A program made the position numbers and the translations under genes. From an uncultured Acidobacteriota bacterium (GTDB lineage: Bacteria; Acidobacteriota; Thermoanaerobaculia; UBA5066): a stretch of 64,000 bases of DNA. The notes beneath the pieces are model-generated. The model saw nothing but the letters and a program-made list of their open reading frames with translations, did no database searches and was not told where the DNA came from. Of the stretch, positions 1,052-47,486 are shown piece after piece; positions within the stretch are counted from its first letter, which is position 1; each line of letters opens with the position of its first letter. The stretch covers positions 321,780 through 385,779 of the forward strand of contig CAVZPE010000008.1 of the NCBI GenBank assembly GCA_963776915.1, given 5' to 3'.

Positions 1052-3235
1052 ATGTCGGCCACGAAATCGGATCTCTTCCTGGGCCGGGCCGTCGACCCCG
1101 GGACGGGGAAGACGGGCGCGGACGCATTCCGCCTCGACCCGTCCGACCTGACGACGCACGGCCTGATCGTGGGCATGACGGGCAGCGGCAAGACCGCGCT
1201 GGGCATCGTCCTCATCGAGGAGCTCCTCCAGCGCGGGATCCCGGTCCTCGCCGTGGACCCCAAGGGCGACCTCGGCAACCTGCTCCTCGACTTCCCGACC
1301 CTTTCACCGGACGAGTTCGCGCCGTTCGTCGACCCCTCCGCCGGCACGCCGGAGTCCGAGGCGAAGAGGTGGAGCGAAGGCCTGGCCGGCTGGGGCCTCG
1401 GCCCGGCCGACGTGAAGGCTCTGCTCGCGAGCCGCGACGCCGTCGTCTACACGCCCGGCTCCACGGCCGGCGTCCCGCTGGACCTGTTCGGCGCGTGCGC
1501 CGCGCCCGCCGAGGGCGCGGACGAGGAGGACGGCCGCGACCTCGTGAGCTCCTGGGTCGGCGGACTCCTCGGCCTCGCGGGACGCGACGCCGATCCCGTG
1601 AAGTCGCGCGACTTCGTCTTCCTCGCCGCCTGCGTGGACGCGCTCTGGTCGGACGGGAAGACGGCCACGCTCGAGGCGCTCCTCGAGACCGCGTCGGCCC
1701 CTCCGTTCGCGAAGGTCGGCGCGCTCTCCCTCGACACGTTCTTTCCCGCGAAGGACCGCCAGGGTCTCGTCCTGGCGCTGAACGGCCTGCTCGCGTCGCC
1801 TGCGACGGCCGCGTTCCGGCAGGGCGACGCGGTCGACGTCGGCCGCATGCTCGCGCCCGCGAGGGACGGCAGGGCGCGGCTCTCGATCGTCTCGATCGCG
1901 CACCTCGGCGACGCCGAGCGCCTGTTCGTCGTCGCGACGCTCCTCGCGCGCGTCAAGGCGTGGATGCGGACGCTCCCCGGCAGCCCCGCGCTGCGCGCTC
2001 TCGTCTACGTCGACGAGATCTTCGGCTTCTTCCCGCCCTCGGCCGAGCCGCCGACGAAGAAGCCGCTCCTGACGCTCCTCAAGCAGGCGCGCGCGTTCGG
2101 CGTCGGCGTCGTTCTCGCGTCGCAGAACCCCGTCGACCTCGACTACCGGGGCCTCGCGAACTGCGGCTGCTGGTGGGTCGGCACGCTGCAGACCGAGCGC
2201 GACCGCAATCGTCTCGGCGAGGGGCTCGTCGAGGCCGGGGGGAAGGACGCGTCCGCGCTCCTCGACAAGACGAGGAAGCGCGTCTTCCTCCTGCACGACG
2301 TCCACCGCAAGGAGCCGGCCCTCGTCGAGACGCGGTGGGCGATGAGCTACCTGCGCGGCCCGATGACGAAGTCCGACCTCGCGCGGCTGCGCGGCTCCGC
2401 GCCGCAGGGGGCGAAGAAAGCGGACGCGGCGTCCGCGCCCGCGGGCTCCGCTCCGCCGCCGCTCCCGCCCGAGTGGCCGTCGCGCTGGGTCGAGAAGCGC
2501 GGCGCAGACCTGGCGTCGGCGGCGCTCTACGTGAGGTACGCCGTGCGCTACAAGACCGCGAAGGGCACGTCGCCCGAGGCGCAGGGCGTCAAGCTCTTTC
2601 CGCTGTCGGCCGCCACGGCCGCCGACGTCCTCGAGGGCGACGCGACCGACGTGAAGCCGGAGAGCCTGCTCGAGAAGGCGCCGCGCGCGCTGCGCTACCC
2701 GGACCTGCCCTCGTGGGTGGGCCCGGCGGGCGTGAAGGCGGCGGAGAAGGCCGTGCGCTCGCGCCTCCCGGACAAGCTCGCGACGACGCTCCTGCGCGAC
2801 CCGGTCACGGGAGCGCTCTCGCTTCCCGGCGAGTCGGCCGCCGACTTCGCGGCGCGCGCCGCGGCGGGGTCCGAGCCGCCGGCCGCTCTGCGCGAGAGGC
2901 TCGAGAAGAAGAAGCGCGACCTCGCCGCGGCCGAGAGCGTCGAGCAGGGAAGAGCGATGGAGACGTACGCCTCGATCGGCACGGCCGCCCTCGACGTCCT
3001 CGGCGGGTTCCTCGGGAAGAGAAAGACGATCCGCGTGAGCAAGGTCGGGTCCGTCCTGACGAAGAAGCGCATGGAGGGCACCGCCGAGGCGAGGGTCGAG
3101 GGCCTCAAGGCCGAGATCGCCGAGCTCGAGGCCAAGCTCGCGCCGCCGGACGCGACCCGGTTCGAGAAGGTCGAGGTCGTCCCGAGCGCGTCGAGCGTCG
3201 ACGTCCTCTCGATCGGCGTGGCCTGGGTCTGCTGA
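1052..3235 (+). CDS. HerA/FtsK-like P-loop ATPase (DUF87/COG0433 type) with a long coiled-coil C-terminal region
   Basis: Start ATG at 1052 (MSATKSDLFLGR...). Walker A is GMTGSGKTALG, followed by VDPKGDLGNL. Walker B-like is ALVYVDEIFGFFP, then ARAFGVGVVLASQNPVDLDY. The C-terminus carries LEKKKRDLAAAE...EGLKAEIAELEAKL. Confidence 0.8.
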   Translation: MSATKSDLFLGRAVDPGTGKTGADAFRLDPSDLTTHGLIVGMTGSGKTALGIVLIEELLQRGIPVLAVDPKGDLGNLLLDFPTLSPDEFAPFVDPSAGTPESEAKRWSEGLAGWGLGPADVKALLASRDAVVYTPGSTAGVPLDLFGACAAPAEGADEEDGRDLVSSWVGGLLGLAGRDADPVKSRDFVFLAACVDALWSDGKTATLEALLETASAPPFAKVGALSLDTFFPAKDRQGLVLALNGLLASPATAAFRQGDAVDVGRMLAPARDGRARLSIVSIAHLGDAERLFVVATLLARVKAWMRTLPGSPALRALVYVDEIFGFFPPSAEPPTKKPLLTLLKQARAFGVGVVLASQNPVDLDYRGLANCGCWWVGTLQTERDRNRLGEGLVEAGGKDASALLDKTRKRVFLLHDVHRKEPALVETRWAMSYLRGPMTKSDLARLRGSAPQGAKKADAASAPAGSAPPPLPPEWPSRWVEKRGADLASAALYVRYAVRYKTAKGTSPEAQGVKLFPLSAATAADVLEGDATDVKPESLLEKAPRALRYPDLPSWVGPAGVKAAEKAVRSRLPDKLATTLLRDPVTGALSLPGESAADFAARAAAGSEPPAALRERLEKKKRDLAAAESVEQGRAMETYASIGTAALDVLGGFLGKRKTIRVSKVGSVLTKKRMEGTAEARVEGLKAEIAELEAKLAPPDATRFEKVEVVPSASSVDVLSIGVAWVC

Positions 3236-3399
3236 AGAGAAGAAGAGAGAAAGAGGAAGATTTTCTTAGAAGGTGAAGAGGGGCTGGGCAAGCGCGGGCG
3301 CCGCACGGTGCGGCGCCGCGGCCGCCCGCCGCCTCATTCACCTTCTAAGAAATCTTCTCTTCTCTTCTCCTTCGGTCTCTCTTTCTCTACAATCTCCCC
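3236..3399. repeat. AT/purine-rich long imperfect palindrome, copy 1 (left arm 3236-3283, GC-rich loop 3284-3331, right arm 3332-3399)
   Basis: The left arm ...GAAGATTTTCTTAGAAGGTGAAGAGGGG pairs with the right arm CCTCATTCACCTTCTAAGAAATCTTC (about 24 of 27 bp). The pairing extends into a 26-nt pure purine run and matching pyrimidine runs. The loop holds its own perfect hairpin, GGCGCCGCA-CGG-TGCGGCGCC. The element lies exactly between the HerA-like stop codon and the next start codon. Confidence 0.75.
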
Positions 3400-17552: not shown

Positions 17553-17573
17553 GGACCACGGCCCCGCCGGGAT

Positions 17574-18442
17574 CTAGATCGACCGGGAGCGCGCCTCGCG
17601 CTCCGCGGCTTCGGCCTCCTCGGAGGCCTTGCGCGCGGATGCGAGAGCGGCTTCGGCTTCGCCTCTTCGGCAGCGGCTGCGGCGAGCGCCTCCTCGAGCG
17701 ACTTCCTCCGGCGCCGGCTCGCCTCGACCGCCTTCTCGGCGTCGATCCGGAGCGCGCGCGCCACTCCGCGCCTCGTTCTTCCAGTGCTGCAACGCGCTTC
17801 TCGTCGTCGCGCCGCCGCTTCTCGTTCGAGCGCGCGTTCGCGCGCAGGATTCTTCTTCGAAGAAATTTTCGGCGGTTCGATGGCGGCGTCTTCACGGACA
17901 GCGAGGGAGTCGACACGGTGCGCCGGGCCGCCGGAACGACCGCCGCCGAGGAGACCGAGCGAGGCGACCTCGTCGAAACCCGGGGCCGGGACGTCCTCGG
18001 CCAGGCGACCGGCGACGGGCCCGCCGCGCCCGCTGCCGTAGGTCGCGATCGCCTCGAGCGTGGCCGAGATGCGGCGCGACGACGTCGGGGCTCGTCGCGC
18101 GACCCGCGCCCGAGACGGCGCGCTCGGCGGCCTTCACGGCCTCGTTCAGCGCTTCGCGCCGCGTGCGCATCGCCTCCTTCACGTCGGAGGGATTCGTCCG
18201 CGAAGGCGGTCGCCCGCGGCGATGAGGGCGTCGAGGAGGCGGGGCGAGGAGAAGGCGATCTGATTGACCGCCCACGCCGCGGCCGAGGGCTTCGCGAGCG
18301 CCTTCACCCGCGCGGCGTCGTCCTTGCGGCCCGCCGCGCCGAGATTCTTCGAGAGCGCGTTGCGCGCCTCCACGAAGTCCGCCAGAGGTGCGGCGTAGAG
18401 CGCGTCCAGCTGCGCCTCGAGGTCGTCACCGGCCCTCGCCAT
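17574..18442 (-). CDS. hypothetical protein with coiled-coil C-terminus, broken by about 5 frameshifts
   Basis: The N-terminus is MARAGDDLEAQLDALYAAPLADFVEARNALSKNLGAAGRKDDAARVKALAKPSAAAWAVNQIAF. It continues in other frames as TNPSDVKEAMRTRREALNEAVKAAERAV.., ..RRISATLEAIATYGSG.., ..AEKAVEASRRRRKSLEEAL.. and ..ASARKASEEAEAAEREARSRSI. No function is recognised. Confidence 0.45.
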
Positions 18443-19474: not shown

Positions 19475-22400
19475 TCACCTCACCGGCATCGCCGGCCGTT
19501 TCGGCCTGACCGGCGGGTTCTTCTTCAGCTCCTCCATGACGATCGCGATCGCCTTCTCGAGCTGCGGGTCGTGGCCCGCGATGACGTCGGCGGGCGTCTG
19601 CTCGACCTCGACGTCGGGCGGGACGCCGACGTTCTCGACGCCGAAGCCCTCCTCCGGCGTCCAGAAGCCGAGGTTCGGCGCGGTGACGACCGCGCCGTCC
19701 ATGAGCGTCGGGAAGCCGAGGATGCCGACGAGGCCGCCCCACGTGCGTTCGCCCACGAGCGTCCCGACCTTGAAGTGCCGGAACATCCACGGCAGGAGGT
19801 CCCCACCGGAGCCGGCCGTCTCGTCGATGAGCATGACCTTCGGCCCCTGGATCGACGCCGACGGCGTCTTGAGGTCTTCGCCGTAGCGCATCGCCCACCA
19901 GGCGATCGGCTGGCGGGTCAGCGCCTCGATGTAGTAGTCCGCGACGCTGCCGCCGCCGTTGAAGCGCTCGTCCACGATGATCGCGTCCTTCGCGGCCTGC
20001 GGGTAGAAGTAGCGCTTGAAGTACGTGTGGCCGAGGCCCGCCGTGTTCGGGACGTAGACGTACGCGACGCGCCCGCCCGTCGCCGCGTCGACCTTCCGGA
20101 GGTTCCCTTCCACCCAGTCGCGGTTGCGGAGCTGGGCCTCGCTCGGCACGGGGACCACCGGGACCGTGCGGGAGCCCCTGCCGTCGGGATGGGGGCCGAC
20201 CGTGAGGTCGACGATCGTCCCGGCCGTCCTCTCGAAGCGGGAGTAGAGGTTCTCGGGCGGCGCGAGATCCCTGCCGTTCACGGCGAGGAGATACTCGCCC
20301 GCCTTCACCTCGACGCCCGGCTCGGAGAGCGGCGCGCGAAGCTCGGGGTTCCAGTTCAGGCCGCCGAACACCTTCTTGAAGCGGTAGCGGCCGTTCGCGA
20401 CCTCGTAGTCCGCGCCGAGGAGGCCGCCCGGCACCGGGGGCACCTCGAGAAACGACTCGCCGGGCGTGTTGCGGTGGTGGCCGACCGAGAGCTCGCTGCA
20501 CATCCACTGGATGAGGCGGTTGAGGTCGCCGCGCGACGAGAGGGCCGGCAGGAACGCCGCGTACTTCGCCTTCAGCGCGGGCCAGTCGTGCCCGTGCATC
20601 TTCGGGTCGTAGAAGTAGTCGCGGTTCACGCGCCAGGCCTCGTCGAAGATCTCGGGCCACTCGGCGCGCGGGTCCACGCGCACCGCGATCGCGTCGAGCT
20701 TCAGCTTGCCGCCGTCGTCCTTCGCGTCCGACTTCGCGTCGACCTTCCGGGGAGACGAGGCGACGATGGACCACGACTCCTTTCGCAGCGGCTCTCGCGA
20801 CGACTCGTTCAGCTTGAAGAGGATCTTCTTCCCGTCGAAAGAGACGAAGTAGTCGTCGGCCTCGGGGACCACCGTCACGGTCTTGCGGTCCCTGAAGTCG
20901 AAGCGCTGGACGGACGTCTTGCCGTCCGCGTGCCTCTCGAAGAAGAGCTGGCCCGCGCCGCCGGCCTGCAGGTTCGAGATCTCGGCGGGGTGCACGGGCA
21001 GGTCGACGATGCGGAGGTTGAAGCCGTCGAAGTCGATGACGACGGGTTCGGGCTTCTTCGGGTGCATGCCGCGGTCGCCCTTGCCGTCCGTCCGTGCGGC
21101 TGCGTCAACGCCCTTGGAATCGGCGGGGTGGCCACCCTTGCCGCCCTTCGAAGAATCTTCTTTCTCTTCTTCTCTTTCGTCTTCCTTCTTCCCGTCCTTC
21201 GCCGCGGCCGCGCCCTTCTCCTCGTCGCTCTCTTTCGCGAGCGGCGAGGGCGTGCCCTTCTTCAGCGTCGCGACGTAGATCGCGTTCGTGGTGCGCGCGT
21301 CCGCGTTCTGCAGCGAGAACCAGTTGCGCTGCGGGCCCGCGTCCGTGGAGGCGAGGAAGTAGAGGAGCTTGCCGTCCCTGTCGAAGGCGGGGTCGGAGAC
21401 GTCCGAGAGGCCGTCCGTGAGGGGGAACGAGCGGTCCTCCTCGACGGAGTAGACCCAGGCCGTGCGGATGTACGTCGGGCCGGAGAGCGTGTACGCGACC
21501 CAGCGCGAGTCCGGCGACCAGGACCCGCGCAGCATCCGCTGGCGGACCGGCGCGTAGAGGCGCTCGGACGCGATCTTCTTCGAGGCGCCGCTCGCGACGT
21601 CGACGATCCACAGGGTGAGGGAGTTGTCCGTGAGGACGATCTTCTTCCCGTCGGGGGAGAACGCGAGCGCGTCGTAGAAGCCGGCGCCGGGGACGTTGAT
21701 CCTCTTCGCGGCGCCTCTTCCGTCCTGCGCCCTCACGACGATCCGGTTCTCGCCGCCTTCGTCCGAGACGTACGCGATCGACTTGCCGTCCGGCGACCAC
21801 GCGGGCGCCGTCTCGTGGACGGCCGTCGTCTCCGTGAGGTTCCGGGCGTCGCCCTTCTCGGCGGGCACGGTCACGATCTCGCCCCGGAACTCGAACGCGG
21901 CCCGGGCGCCGGAGGGGGAGAGGGCCGCGCCGCGGATCCATTTCGCGCCCTTCGCCCAGCGCGGGCGCGTCTCGAGGAGGTCGCCCGCGACGGTGATCGC
22001 GAGGTCGGTCGTCTTCTTCGAGGCGACGTCGTACAGGTGGAGCGTCCCGGCCTGCTCGAAGACGATCCGGCCCTCGGCCGCCGCCGCGTTCAGCACGGGG
22101 AAGTCCGAGTAGCGGGTGAGGGGAGAGAGAGAAAGAGATTTCTTCGACGGGTCATGTGCGTCGGCCGTCTGGTCGAGAACGTAGAGATTGAACTCGCCGT
22201 CGCGATCGGACCTGAGGTACAGAGTGTGGCCGAGCCAGACGGGGTCGACGTCGTTGCAGCGCGTCGCGGGCTGCGGGACCTTCACGACCGCGTGCGACGC
22301 GACGTCGTAGAGCCAGATCGTCGAGACGAGGCCGCCGCGGTAGCGCTTCCACTGCAGGTGCGCCGGGTTGTTCGGGTTGTAGGCGATGGTCCGGCCGTCC

Positions 22401-44839: not shown

Positions 44840-47486
44840 TCAGCGCGACGTCGGCGCCGCGGGCGCGTGCGGCGCGAGCCCGGAGCCCGCGCCGGCCGAC
44901 ACGAGGTTCACGAAGAACCGGTACGCGCCCGGGACGCCGGCCGGCAGCTGCCGGAAGAACGCGTAGCCCGTGTAGACGTACGCCCCCTTGCCGACCCTCG
45001 CGTAGAGGAGGCCGCCCTTCTTGTCGGTCTCGCCGGGGTCGTGCGACGCGATCGGGGTCTCGTACCGCGGGTCCCACGTGCCCGCGAAGTAGAGCCCGCG
45101 CTCCTGCACCCAGCCGTCGAAGTCGGCGGACGTGAGCCTGTTCGGGAAGTTCAGGAGGGGGCTGCCCGGCTCGAGGAACGTGACGGGGGCCTCCTCGACG
45201 GTCACGCGGTCGCGCGAGATCTTGAACGGGTACGGCCCGATCTCGTTCGTCACGAGGTCGCCCGTCGTGTCGTACTGGACGACGAGCGGTGCCGCCCTTC
45301 TCGGCGTACGCGAGGAGGCGGCCCTCGACCTGCTTCAGCCGCGGCCGCGTGTTGTACGCGCGGATGCCCGTCACGATCGCCGCGTAACGCGAGAGGTCGC
45401 CGGTCTCGAGGTCGTCGTCCGAGAGCAGCGTCACGGAGTACCCCATCTGCCGGAGCGCGTCGGGGCCCGCGTCGCCCGAGCCCATCACGTAGCCGATCGG
45501 CGCGCGCGGCGCCTTCACGTCGATGCGCAGGACGCGCGCCTCGGCGGGCGGGAACAGGGTCTGGAGCGGAATGTGGGGATAGTCGACGCGCACCACGGAA
45601 TGCGATTCCGTGCGCCCGGCGACCGTCGTCTCCGCCGAGAGCGTGCCGGAGGCCTGGCCCGGCGGCGGCGTCACCGTGAACGCCACGGGCTTCTCCTCGC
45701 CCTTGGCCGCGAGCTCGAACAGCACCTCGGCCGGGGTGACGTGGAACCCGGCGGGCGCCCGGAGGCGCACCGCGCCCGAGACCTTCGGCGCTCCCGCGAC
45801 GAGCGTGACGCGCACCGTCTTCGCGGCGCCGCTCCCGAACGCGTAGACCTTCTCGTCGAGGTTCGCCATGACGGGCGGGACGATCTCGAACGGGCTGTAC
45901 ACCTCGCCCCTCACGGGGTCGGTCCGGCGGAAGACGACGGGGGTCTCGAACGGGATCGTCACCCCCGCGACGCGCACGGCGAACCGCGCGACGAGCGGCG
46001 GCGCGTTCTCGGGCCGGCCGACGAGACGGGGATCCGGCACGGAGTAGAGGCCCTTGCCGGCGGGCGCGAGCAGCCAGTAAGGCTGCGTGGTGGCGGCGTC
46101 CGCCGGGAGCGCCACCGTCGCGGTCCCCCGCAGCGGCTCGTTCGGCGCGAGGGCGCCGCCCGGGAGCGGCGCGGCGACGCCGCCCTCGACCTCGACGTTC
46201 TCGAGCGACGCCGGGAAGGCCGAGCGGTTCAGGGCCATCGTCGCGACCTTGACCCCGGTGCCCGGCGCGGCCGAGACGTCGGCCGCGATCGCCTCCGTCC
46301 ACAGCCCGAGGCACGCCCGGATCGCCTCGGCGACCTCGGCGCGCTTGGCGGCGAGGAGGGGATCCGGGGAGGAAGACGACGCCGGATCGACGAGAGACGA
46401 GGATTCGGATTTCTTAGAAGGGGAAGAGGGGGAGGGCGGAGCGGCCTGCTGAGCCCCCGCCTCGAGCATCCGGCCGATCGCCGTCCACGCCTCCACGAGC
46501 CCCGGGACCGACGCCGCCGGGTCCGATTCGCGAAATCCTTCCTCCACCTTTCTAAGAATCTTTCCGATTTCTTCTCCCTCGGCTCCGTATCTCTTCCAGG
46601 AGAGATCGACGCCCTCGAAGAGGTCTTCCTTCGCCGGCTCGCCCGCGATCAGCTTGAAGTCGTTCAGCCAGACGCCGCGGCGCTCGGCGGCGCCGAAGCC
46701 CTGGCTCTTGTGCATGGAACGGCTCTGGCCGGCGATCTCGGTGTACGAGCGGCCGAGGAGCGCGTTGTAGCCGCCGAGGTCCACCGCGATCTCTCCCGGC
46801 GCCGGCGTCCGCGGGGCGTTTGGTCCGAAGCGGAAGACGTTCCAGAGGACCCGCTTCACCTGCCAGGGCCGGACCCACTGGAGCTGCTCGGGAAAGCGCT
46901 TCGGGTCGGCCGCGGCCGTGAACGCCTCGACCGCGAGGATCGCGGAGGCGGTGTGGTTGCCGTGGCCTCCCTCGCCGGTCGTCGGAAACCGCGTGACGAT
47001 CACGTCCGGCCGGAAGGAGCGGATGACCCAGACGACGTCGGAGAGGACCTGCTCGTGGCCCCAGATCGCGAACGTCTCCCCGGGGTTCTTCGAGTAGCCG
47101 AAGTCGATCGCCCGCGTGAAGAACTGCCGCGCGCCGTCGATCCGCCGCGCCGCGAGGAGCTCCTGCGTGCGCAGGACGCCGACGAGCTCGCCGGTCTCGT
47201 TCCCGATCAGGTTCTGGCCGCCGTCGCCGCGCGTGACGGAGAGATAACCCGTCTCGAGAAGGCGCCCCTTCGCGCCCCAGGCGAGGAAGGCCGAGTTCTC
47301 GTCGTCCGGGTGGGCCGCGAGGTAGAGCACGCTGCCGACGACGTTCAGCTTCTTCAGCTGGAGCGCGATCTCGGAGGCGCTGAGGTTCTCGGCGGGCGCG
47401 GCGGCCCGGGCCGGGCGCGCGGCGAGGGCGATCAGGGCGGCGAGGACGGGGAGGGCGCGGAGCAGGCGGCGCGTCATGCGCCGCAT
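44840..47486 (-). CDS. PIG-L/LmbE family deacetylase fused to a C-terminal ThuA/GATase1-like domain (one frameshift near 45285)
   Basis: A signal peptide is followed by LYLAAHPDDENSAFLAW...VTRGDGGQN...GHGNHTA (PIG-L motifs). The C-terminus continues in the frame of track ORF 44840..45253 (..VVQYDTTGDLVTNEIGPYPFKI...YVYTGYAFFRQLPAGVPGAYRFFVNL). Confidence 0.85.
46391..46582. repeat. AT/purine-rich imperfect palindrome, copy 3 (arms 46391-46436 and 46537-46582), inside the PIG-L gene
   Basis: The left arm is CGAGAGACGAGGATTCGGATTTCTTAGAAGGGGAAGAGGGGGAGGG. The reverse complement of the right arm is CCGAGGGAGAAGAAATCGGAAAGATTCTTAGAAAGGTGGAGGAAGG. The arms share ATCGGA..TTCTTAGAA..GG.G.AG. They are translated as EGEEIGKILRKVEEG and PPSPSSPSKKSESSSLV with A/T-ending codons. 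Confidence 0.7.

Follow-up and report, generated by a model that had tools for sequence, protein, structure and literature searches.

The described systems that most resemble, in behaviour, the repeats considered here appear to be the Rickettsia palindromic elements (RPEs) and the uptake sequences of coding regions, although our repeat family fits neither. The repeats are two single arms, arm A and arm B, inside a gene for a tricorn-like protease, and this gene lies in a stretch of 64,000 nucleotides (the window) from the draft genome (4.49 Mb; G000 below) of an uncultured Acidobacteriota bacterium, assembly GCA_963776915.1. On balance, both arms are probably old in-frame half-copies (solo arms) of a genus-restricted inverted-repeat family, kept in place by constraint at the DNA level.

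RPEs are in-frame repeats in functional protein genes (Ogata et al., 2000, summarised in PMC10969869). As far as that summary describes them, they are like the present repeats in that short palindromic sequences stand in frame in unrelated functional genes, are translated as surface or loop residues and are inherited across the species of one genus. In the same account an RPE is present as a whole, ~100-150 bp in length, encodes a conserved peptide specific to its family and is hosted by AT-rich reduced genomes, whereas the tricorn arms are single and ~30 nt long and form AT-rich islands with retained silent sites in a genome of 71% GC. Neither tricorn arm is a whole in-frame element with a peptide typical of the family; the peptides of the two arms differ by frame and orientation (EDSSKG vs PSKKSLSLS), and the paired copies of the present family have a non-conserved middle.

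The uptake signal sequence (USS) of Pasteurellaceae and the DNA uptake sequence (DUS) of Neisseriaceae are clade-specific words with hundreds of copies that are equal on the two strands, often form inverted pairs at gene ends and, where they lie in coding sequence, occupy poorly conserved residues (PMC2817400; PMC1939737). The present family likewise shows clade-specific over-representation on both strands and coding copies at weakly conserved residues, and there is interspecies recombination in the tricorn gene. Unlike USS and DUS, it shows no evidence of competence-linked uptake; the purine tails of its arms are long, and paired arms stand ~75 bp apart, at fixed spacing; its arm density in the genome, ~1 per 5.6 kb, is below the ~1 per kb typical of uptake sequences; and arm A differs between relatives as a 30-nt block indel and not by point-mutational accretion. 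We know of no cultured member of the genus.

The repeat family itself is real and genus-restricted. In its arm consensus, GAT-TTCTTAGAAGG-TGAAGAGGGG comes after a tail that is GA-rich or made up of GGATTC-type units in a run, and the core contains the dyad TTCT-N-AGAA. On both strands of G000 together the core TTCTTAGAA occurs in 346 copies, with ~1 per strand expected, and the 11-mer TTCTTAGAAGG in 267 copies, 138 on one strand and 129 on the other; the same 11-mer numbers 37-267 in each of the 25 genus genomes and 0-2 in 16 genomes from other genera of the order. Among the exact-core copies there are 59 facing pairs, with a modal core-to-core spacing of ~75 bp, and their GC-rich middles show no sequence relation among them. 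With a profile iterated once on G000, 798 arms score at least 10 bits, against 29 in the reversed-genome control; 486 of these (61%) lie in convergent pairs at most 300 bp apart. The solo state of the tricorn arms, for neither of which a facing partner was found 65-300 bp away when the surrounding sequence was read, matches the remaining ~39%. Genome-wide the outer tail is either a polypurine run or a series of short tandem GGATTC/TTCGGA-type units (e.g. TTCGGATTTCGGATTTCGGATTTCTTAGAAGG), which suggests two tail subfamilies. In addition, at least seven Ser/Thr kinase paralogues on other contigs of G000 share one position at which a canonical arm stands in frame (..VKVLPEDFLEGEERKQRFEREA..); Leu is encoded there by the very rare TTA, and GATTTCTTAGAAGGTGAAGAGAG hardly varies among them while flanking silent sites differ.

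The family is apparently undescribed so far: no description turned up in the literature searched, and Rfam has no match anywhere in the window. REP sequences and the REPIN-RAYT system are similar in that they are short palindromic units, often inverted doublets, with hundreds of lineage-specific copies (PMC3733652), but the present family carries neither a GTAG nor a CGTC tag and many of its copies are intragenic. The Y1 (RAYT) transposase domain PF01797 is absent from G000 and occurs in 3 of 26 genus genomes, while the repeat is found in all 25 that were searched. HIP1 (GCGATCGC) of cyanobacteria is also a hyper-abundant palindromic word kept in coding sequence by DNA-level selection, but it is an 8-bp GC-rich word without tails, fixed-spacing pairs or associated indels (PMC5861425). 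Nor does the family look like MITEs (miniature transposable elements with inverted repeats), as the middles of the 59 pairs are unrelated, no target-site duplication or parent element is evident; a search for an autonomous parent found no excess of convergent arm pairs at 0.3-3 kb in the genome.

The gene that holds the two arms (Table 1) is intact and encodes a product of 1138 aa whose N-terminal segment resembles a signal peptide. Pfam assigns to it PD40 (propeller repeats), Tricorn_C1, PDZ_Tricorn and Peptidase_S41, and the product matches the Thermoplasma tricorn structure 1K32 with E 1e-86. Going by the names of the closest homologues, the genome belongs to Thermoanaerobaculia, Acidobacteriota. 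S1028 (the Ser of AGSGGD) and H805 are invariant in 57 homologues and both align with 1K32, and thus the product has the two beta-propellers, the C1 and PDZ domains and the S41 domain with catalytic Ser and His of the tricorn family. The locus was taken from 20 relatives and codon alignments were made; 18 genus sequences enter the counts for arm A. Relatives that must be told apart are labelled L011 (G013), L002 (G019, the nearest relative), L008 (G005:C214) and L031 (G024, protein P0039). A tricorn paralogue, 39% identical, lies elsewhere in the same genome (G000:C13:194365-197640), and several relatives also have paralogues.

Arm B is near certain to belong to the family, and its membership is settled because orthologues carry the canonical core. 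In the window its plus strand reads GAGGGGAGAGAGAGAAAGAGATTTCTTCGACGG, with the minus-strand translation DPSKKSLSLSPL (residues 247-258); the coding strand CCG TCG AAG AAA TCT CTT TCT CTC TCT CCC CTC gives PSKKSLSLSPL (residues 248-258), and the core, TTCTTCGAC, has two mismatches from TTCTTAGAA. At the same codons both L011 and L002 have the exact core TTCTAAGAA. In L011 the codons AAT CCT TCT AAG AAA TCC TTC TCT CTT contain the exact 14-mer CCTTCTAAGAAATC, to which a model trained on G000 alone gives 21.6 bits (E 0.0015 per genome), with all control hits below 20 bits, and L002 reads CCT TCT AAG AGA TCT TTC TCT CTT. The window arm B shows two synonymous T-to-G changes (CCT TCT to CCG TCG), and it scores 3.7 bits with the model from exact-core copies of G000; its flank-only score is 13.9 bits (tail 0.0002).

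Arm A is probably a family member as well. Its coding strand, ...GAA GAG AAA GAA GAT TCT TCG AAG GG, gives KKEDEREEEKEDSSKG (residues 567-582) and stands in left-arm orientation, and its core is the 9-mer TTCTTCGAA at 21147-21155 of the minus strand, at most one mismatch from TTCTTAGAA, at the variable base in position 6. With the iterated model the arm scores 8.8-9.2 bits; nhmmer with the exact-core model misses it, and the flank-only score is 5.0 bits (background tail 0.002). In 14 of the 18 genus sequences the codons are GAA GAT TCT T[C/T]G AAR GGN. In L010 and L011 the arm is GAAGATTCTTTGAAAGGTAAAGAGGGCGGG and continues GGT AAA GAG GGC GGG, which matches the inner arm; measured against the inner-arm pattern GGTRAGAGGG, these two carry GGTAAAGAGGGC, and the support from the window arm is weaker. 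At the 8-9 bits that both tricorn arms reach with the iterated model, ~1000 real hits stand against ~40 hits in the reversed genome (~4% false). A reading of the window made from its letters before this analysis (the sequence-only reading) had placed both arms in one family, which now looks near certain for arm B and probable for arm A, with weak support from the window genome taken alone.

A chance origin would have the E/K linker and the Ser/Leu loop yield the purine and pyrimidine runs, with TTCTTCGAA supplied by ordinary codons (SSK, FEE). It would accommodate the low unbiased score in G000 (at most 3.7 bits), the fact that ~40% of all 338 TTCTTCGAA copies lack family-like flanks and the palindrome at 17853, which lacks them too. 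It leaves without explanation the exact family 14-mer at the orthologous arm B codons of L011, the fact that conserved rare codons cluster at just two places in the gene, which are the arms, and the restriction of arm-bearing alleles to the genus that has the family. We consider chance very improbable overall, and for arm B it is disfavoured.

The sequence-only reading took the charged segment of ~70 aa around arm A for an insertion, and this does not stand, since a K/E/D/G-rich stretch lies between a conserved KESDEEKG and a conserved P-x-P-V-x-ID in all 118 aligned homologues, including the ~60%-identical ones from Betaproteobacteria; as far as the linker goes, this is the outcome which that reading had itself named as refuting it. 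Because all bacterial homologues have it, the ~65-aa linker is ancestral. Outgroup linkers are likewise written in polypurine GAR/AAR codons, and residues 553-611 have a predicted local distance difference test score (pLDDT) below 50 in the AlphaFold2 model. The multiple alignment of tricorn homologues which that reading had proposed thus speaks against an insert at the linker and for one, of ~9 extra codons, in the arm B region; what holds of its view that the arms sit at low-complexity inserts is that they sit at permissive low-complexity sites of an intact gene. The linker also holds a degenerate core-like word (DSKG; Table 1), which is directly oriented and follows the arm A core 33 nt downstream; its GAT is kept in 4 of 7 species, and the matching ADSK of relatives often has the rare GAT. 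No facing partner of arm A was found; the PKKP codons (CCG AAG AAG CC), 93 nt away, are only a vague mirror of it in G000.

The arm sequences, their translations and the difference between TAG and TCG in the core are as first described, and a TAG in place of TCG would indeed stop the arm A frame. The step from there to a domesticated element, in which TCG is a change that removed a stop codon, does not follow. Genome-wide the commonest core variants with family-like flanks are TTCTTCGAA (200 copies) and TTCTTTGAA (102 copies), for the most part outside called coding frames, and since TCG and TTG are thus the commonest natural variants, repair of a stop codon is not needed. TCG as a repaired stop was rejected also on the frame census, in which no more than 16 of 27 called coding TCG sites are in the two frames that a TAG or TAA would close and 173 of 200 lie outside called frames, figures that are indicative only, as the coding-frame caller is strict and under-calls. 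Across species the would-be stop residue of arm A is Ser (TCG) or Leu (TTG or CTG), a polymorphism that mirrors the two top core variants of the genome. Apart from the arms, the L008 orthologue has an in-frame TAG at codon ~461 in place of a conserved Ser (TCG; ..VAYTL*GPTY..), a nonsense mutation or an assembly error; a relation of this TAG to the arms was considered and rejected.

The evidence for constraint comes from silent sites. A or T at the third codon position (A/T3) has a mean of 6.6% across the genus orthologues, and 6 of 1136 columns reach at least 70%. Four of these six are consecutive and lie in arm A (GAA GAA GAT TCT, residues 577-580), a cluster with P = 4e-7 even when it is taken against the full 16-codon arm of the sequence-only reading. 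When the species with arm B are taken by themselves, 27 columns have A/T3 of at least 50%, and the two arms account for 19 of them (P = 1e-20); TCT at residue 580 is kept in all 14 arm-bearing species. Given A/T3 in one species, another species has it too with a probability of 0.72-0.82 at the codons of arm A and of 0.59 at those of arm B, as against 0.12 in the rest of the gene. By a two-state estimate, ancestral A/T3 would be expected in ~31% of lineages, and ~85% is observed in the arm A core; A/T loss in the arms would be ~six-fold slower than at other silent A/T sites, a rough figure, as the two-state model is crude and the lineages in it are not independent. Silent sites beside arm A have diverged (0.18-0.21) as much as the gene has on average, and therefore a recent sweep is no explanation of the retention. 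Overall, these patterns speak for constraint on the DNA itself or for arms that are refreshed again and again from other copies, and not for neutral decay. Decay, one of the two histories that the sequence-only reading had offered, is not the main trend; across species the A/T-ending arm codons outlast other silent sites by far.

It is improbable, in our judgement, that the arms are neutral relics, that is, two selfish MITE-like half-elements which landed where they were tolerated and now drift to the GC3 (the GC content at third codon positions) of the host and share A/T codons by ancestry. The two silent T-to-G losses of the window arm B, the TCC or TCG that several species have for TCT, the deletion of arms in some lineages and raw silent differences at least as high in the arms as elsewhere would fit such a history. 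It would not predict the co-occurrence and the retention just described, nor the unbroken TCT at residue 580; the normal flanking divergence speaks against arms younger than the gene, and the seven kinase paralogues keep the motif with a rare TTA codon.

As to how the arms arose, each behaves as a separate block of ~30 nt that keeps the frame when it is compared with alleles without it, and arm-bearing alleles are confined to the genus with the repeat family, as seen in homologue alignments and genome counts. For arm A, the sisters L008 and L018, with near-identical flanks, differ by a single 30-nt indel (GAA AAA GAA GAG GAT TCT TCG AAA GGA AGA) that comprises its tail, core and inner arm; at this indel no target-site duplication is evident, and GA-rich microhomology alone is seen. 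For arm B, most homologues and 1K32 have the ancestral short turn NLYAY-DAKSK-ALTRLT, and the arm B alleles, found in a subset of close relatives, are longer by 7 to 9 codons. New in these alleles are the polypyrimidine tail (SLSLSP) and QTADAH, and the codons for LDQTADAHD, which are not repeat-like, are part of a beta-hairpin extension of 9 codons. In the AlphaFold2 model residues 235-243 and 251-257 form strands and 244-250 the turn, with arm B as the turn and the return strand of the extended hairpin. The ancestral turn already contains TCG AAG, and the core of arm B overlies these native codons. Thus the suggested insertion of the PSKKS segment is borne out for ~9 extra codons and not for its S-K, which lies over the ancestral D-A-K-S-K turn (TCG AAG). 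A Gly/Pro insertion of 3-7 aa (..WVNGPGGAT..) occurs at alignment residues ~219-222 in L003, L006, L011, L013 and L021; it is present in 5 of the 8 arm-B-bearing sequences, ~25 codons upstream of arm B.

The main rival to entry as a unit is that the arms were written in place, with near-matches converted stepwise, by substitutions and small indels, under a genome-wide drive or selection, and with the extra codons as unrelated length variation of loop and linker. The drive could be biased uptake and recombination as for USS and DUS, or a protein-binding word as proposed for HIP1 (PMC2817400; PMC5861425). This would be eased by an ancestral turn that reads AAG TCG AAG and an ancestral linker that is polypurine, and P0039 has the core CCT TCG AAG AAA TCC in an allele of ancestral length, without the surrounding extra codons. 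Furthermore, at the conserved PKKP site downstream of the linker the same relative, which has no arm A, encodes SKKV, and its codons GTT TCG AAG AAG GTC GAT CCC include an exact TTCGAAGAA core variant, which may be a motif written over native Lys codons. The pressure at the DNA level that the retained A/T-ending codons imply, a family that is genus-specific, strand-equal and dense, the recombination mosaic between species in the tricorn gene and the known coding uptake sequences at poorly conserved residues (PMC2817400) are also in keeping with it. However, the L008/L018 difference is a clean block with tail, core and inner arm, and the polypyrimidine tail that comes with arm B, 17 nt long, is of the kind seen in whole arms. 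Writing the core over the ancestral codons would require ~9 substitutions, and pairs at fixed spacing and long tails of purines are not features of uptake sequences. Given its linked LTRYT substitutions, P0039 is read more simply as an arm-B allele with secondary deletions. Writing in place therefore seems to us unlikely, though it is the alternative that deserves most attention.

Exchange between species has also shaped the locus. In residues 170-300 L010 is 0.83-0.89 identical to alleles that lack arm B and 0.74-0.82 identical to its clade mates L003 and L011, and outside these residues it is closest to L003 and L011. The arm B region is thus a mosaic of two haplotypes exchanged by homologous recombination, and with such exchange there is no need for repeated insertion. 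Approximately unbiased (AU) tests speak mildly against a single clade of arm-A-bearing or of arm-B-bearing sequences (p = 0.03 each). A single gain of each arm was considered and set aside on this result, and with a star-like tree and a mosaic no event count was drawn. The two arms as ends of one 1-kb element were rejected, since the intervening 950 bp encode conserved propeller found in all homologues and 1K32, and also because the arms face outward.

Several points weigh against constrained half-copies as the account of both arms. In G000 alone neither arm is individually significant (3.7 bits for one and the other undetected, with the unbiased model), so that the decisive support for membership comes from the orthologues. 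Arm A stays at or below ~10 bits in every species, and much of its flank score is the polypurine tract expected of any E/K linker; the arm B core over an ancestral TCG AAG fits growth in place equally well. The six-fold figure carries the limits given with it, and the arms show no reduction in raw silent differences, which amount to 0.32 for arm A and 0.43 for arm B (0.18-0.28 elsewhere). A claim that the arms are more conserved at silent sites generally was rejected on these differences and narrowed to A/T retention. The gene tree of the genus is star-like, with 9 of 18 inner forks unresolved, and therefore the number and timing of arm gains and losses are uncertain. Finally, insertion is read from indel patterns alone, since the analysis identified neither a target-site duplication nor a donor copy nor an enzyme.

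With these points in mind, we still favour constrained half-copies, and their history might be pictured as follows. Each arm would have come in whole, as ~30 nt, at a tolerant site in some ancestor inside the genus. For arm A this would be the pre-existing disordered linker, natively polypurine-coded, and for arm B the turn of a beta-hairpin in the propeller, where the ancestral TCG AAG was a match to the core beforehand. Entry may have been by templated copy or gene conversion, guided by microhomology with the native sequence, and not by cut-and-paste transposition; the copy that became arm A would have had TCG (TTG in other species) where the canonical TAG would stop translation. Later the arms would have been passed on by descent, exchanged among species through homologous recombination and at times lost by deletion, while the double-stranded DNA word with its dyad was under constraint or repeatedly refreshed from other copies. 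The likeliest candidate role would be that of a binding site for a genus-specific protein; the two arms are oppositely oriented to transcription, which argues against a strand-specific RNA role.

A more specific proposal, which we put forward tentatively, is that an arm acts as cis-signal for a genus-specific system of DNA recognition, as yet undescribed, in which a putative dimeric protein reads TTCT-N-AGAA. Such a system could serve uptake, recombination, nucleoid organisation or the "writing" of repeats, and a single arm would be functional alone. The demand for the signal would then override codon bias within conserved genes, and tolerant loops and linkers of proteins like tricorn would act as parking places.

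The remaining features of the window that bear on the family are included in Table 1. The 12-bp palindrome that the sequence-only reading had called related to the arms is present, one base from the 17852-17863 first given for it. It resembles the family in its core only and its membership is uncertain: it scores 10-11 bits with the iterated, core-dominated model, and its flanks, at -8.0 and 1.7 bits, are not family-like. It had also been placed inside a gene, a placement that finds no support, as the surrounding 835 nt (17553-18387) show no codon-position GC periodicity and no long open reading frame in them has a Pfam match. This stretch lies between an O-methyltransferase gene and an ankyrin-repeat gene and may be either a gene that has degraded or an intergenic region of some length.

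Table 1. Positions in the window of the tricorn gene, the two arms and other features discussed in the text
Feature	Position	Strand	Basis or remark
Canonical paired copy, reference; arms facing, GC-rich variable middle	3234..3390		28.2 + 26.4 bits
12-bp palindrome TTCTTCGAAGAA	17853..17864		Core-only resemblance to family; membership uncertain
Intact tricorn-like S41 protease gene, 1138 aa	19475..22891	-	Open reading frame and translation
Charged K/E/D/G linker that holds arm A, ancestral	21041..21238	-	Residues 552-617; variable length, 118/118 homologues
Degenerate core-like word GAT TCC AAG GGC (DSKG, residues 591-594)	21110..21121	-	Sequence and codon alignment
Arm A (probable member): polypurine tract, then core GAT TCT TCG AAG GG	21145..21193	-	Sequence, iterated profile, orthologues
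Arm B (near-certain member): GA-rich tract, then GATTTCTTCGACGG	22118..22150	+	Sequence, flank score, orthologues
Extra codons beside arm B, LDQTADAHD (residues 239-247)	22151..22177	-	Absent from most homologues and 1K32
Second canonical paired copy	46381..46586		25.8 + 12.4 bits

The tricorn locus is a natural experiment, in that close relatives with and without each arm are available side by side. For annotation it is a warning that rare-codon, low-complexity patches in high-GC genes can derive from repeats. If the arms are kept for their DNA sequence, a lineage-specific word would constrain the coding of conserved proteins in bacteria beyond Proteobacteria and cyanobacteria, and, if this is true, a DNA word would also shape the loops and linkers of proteins.

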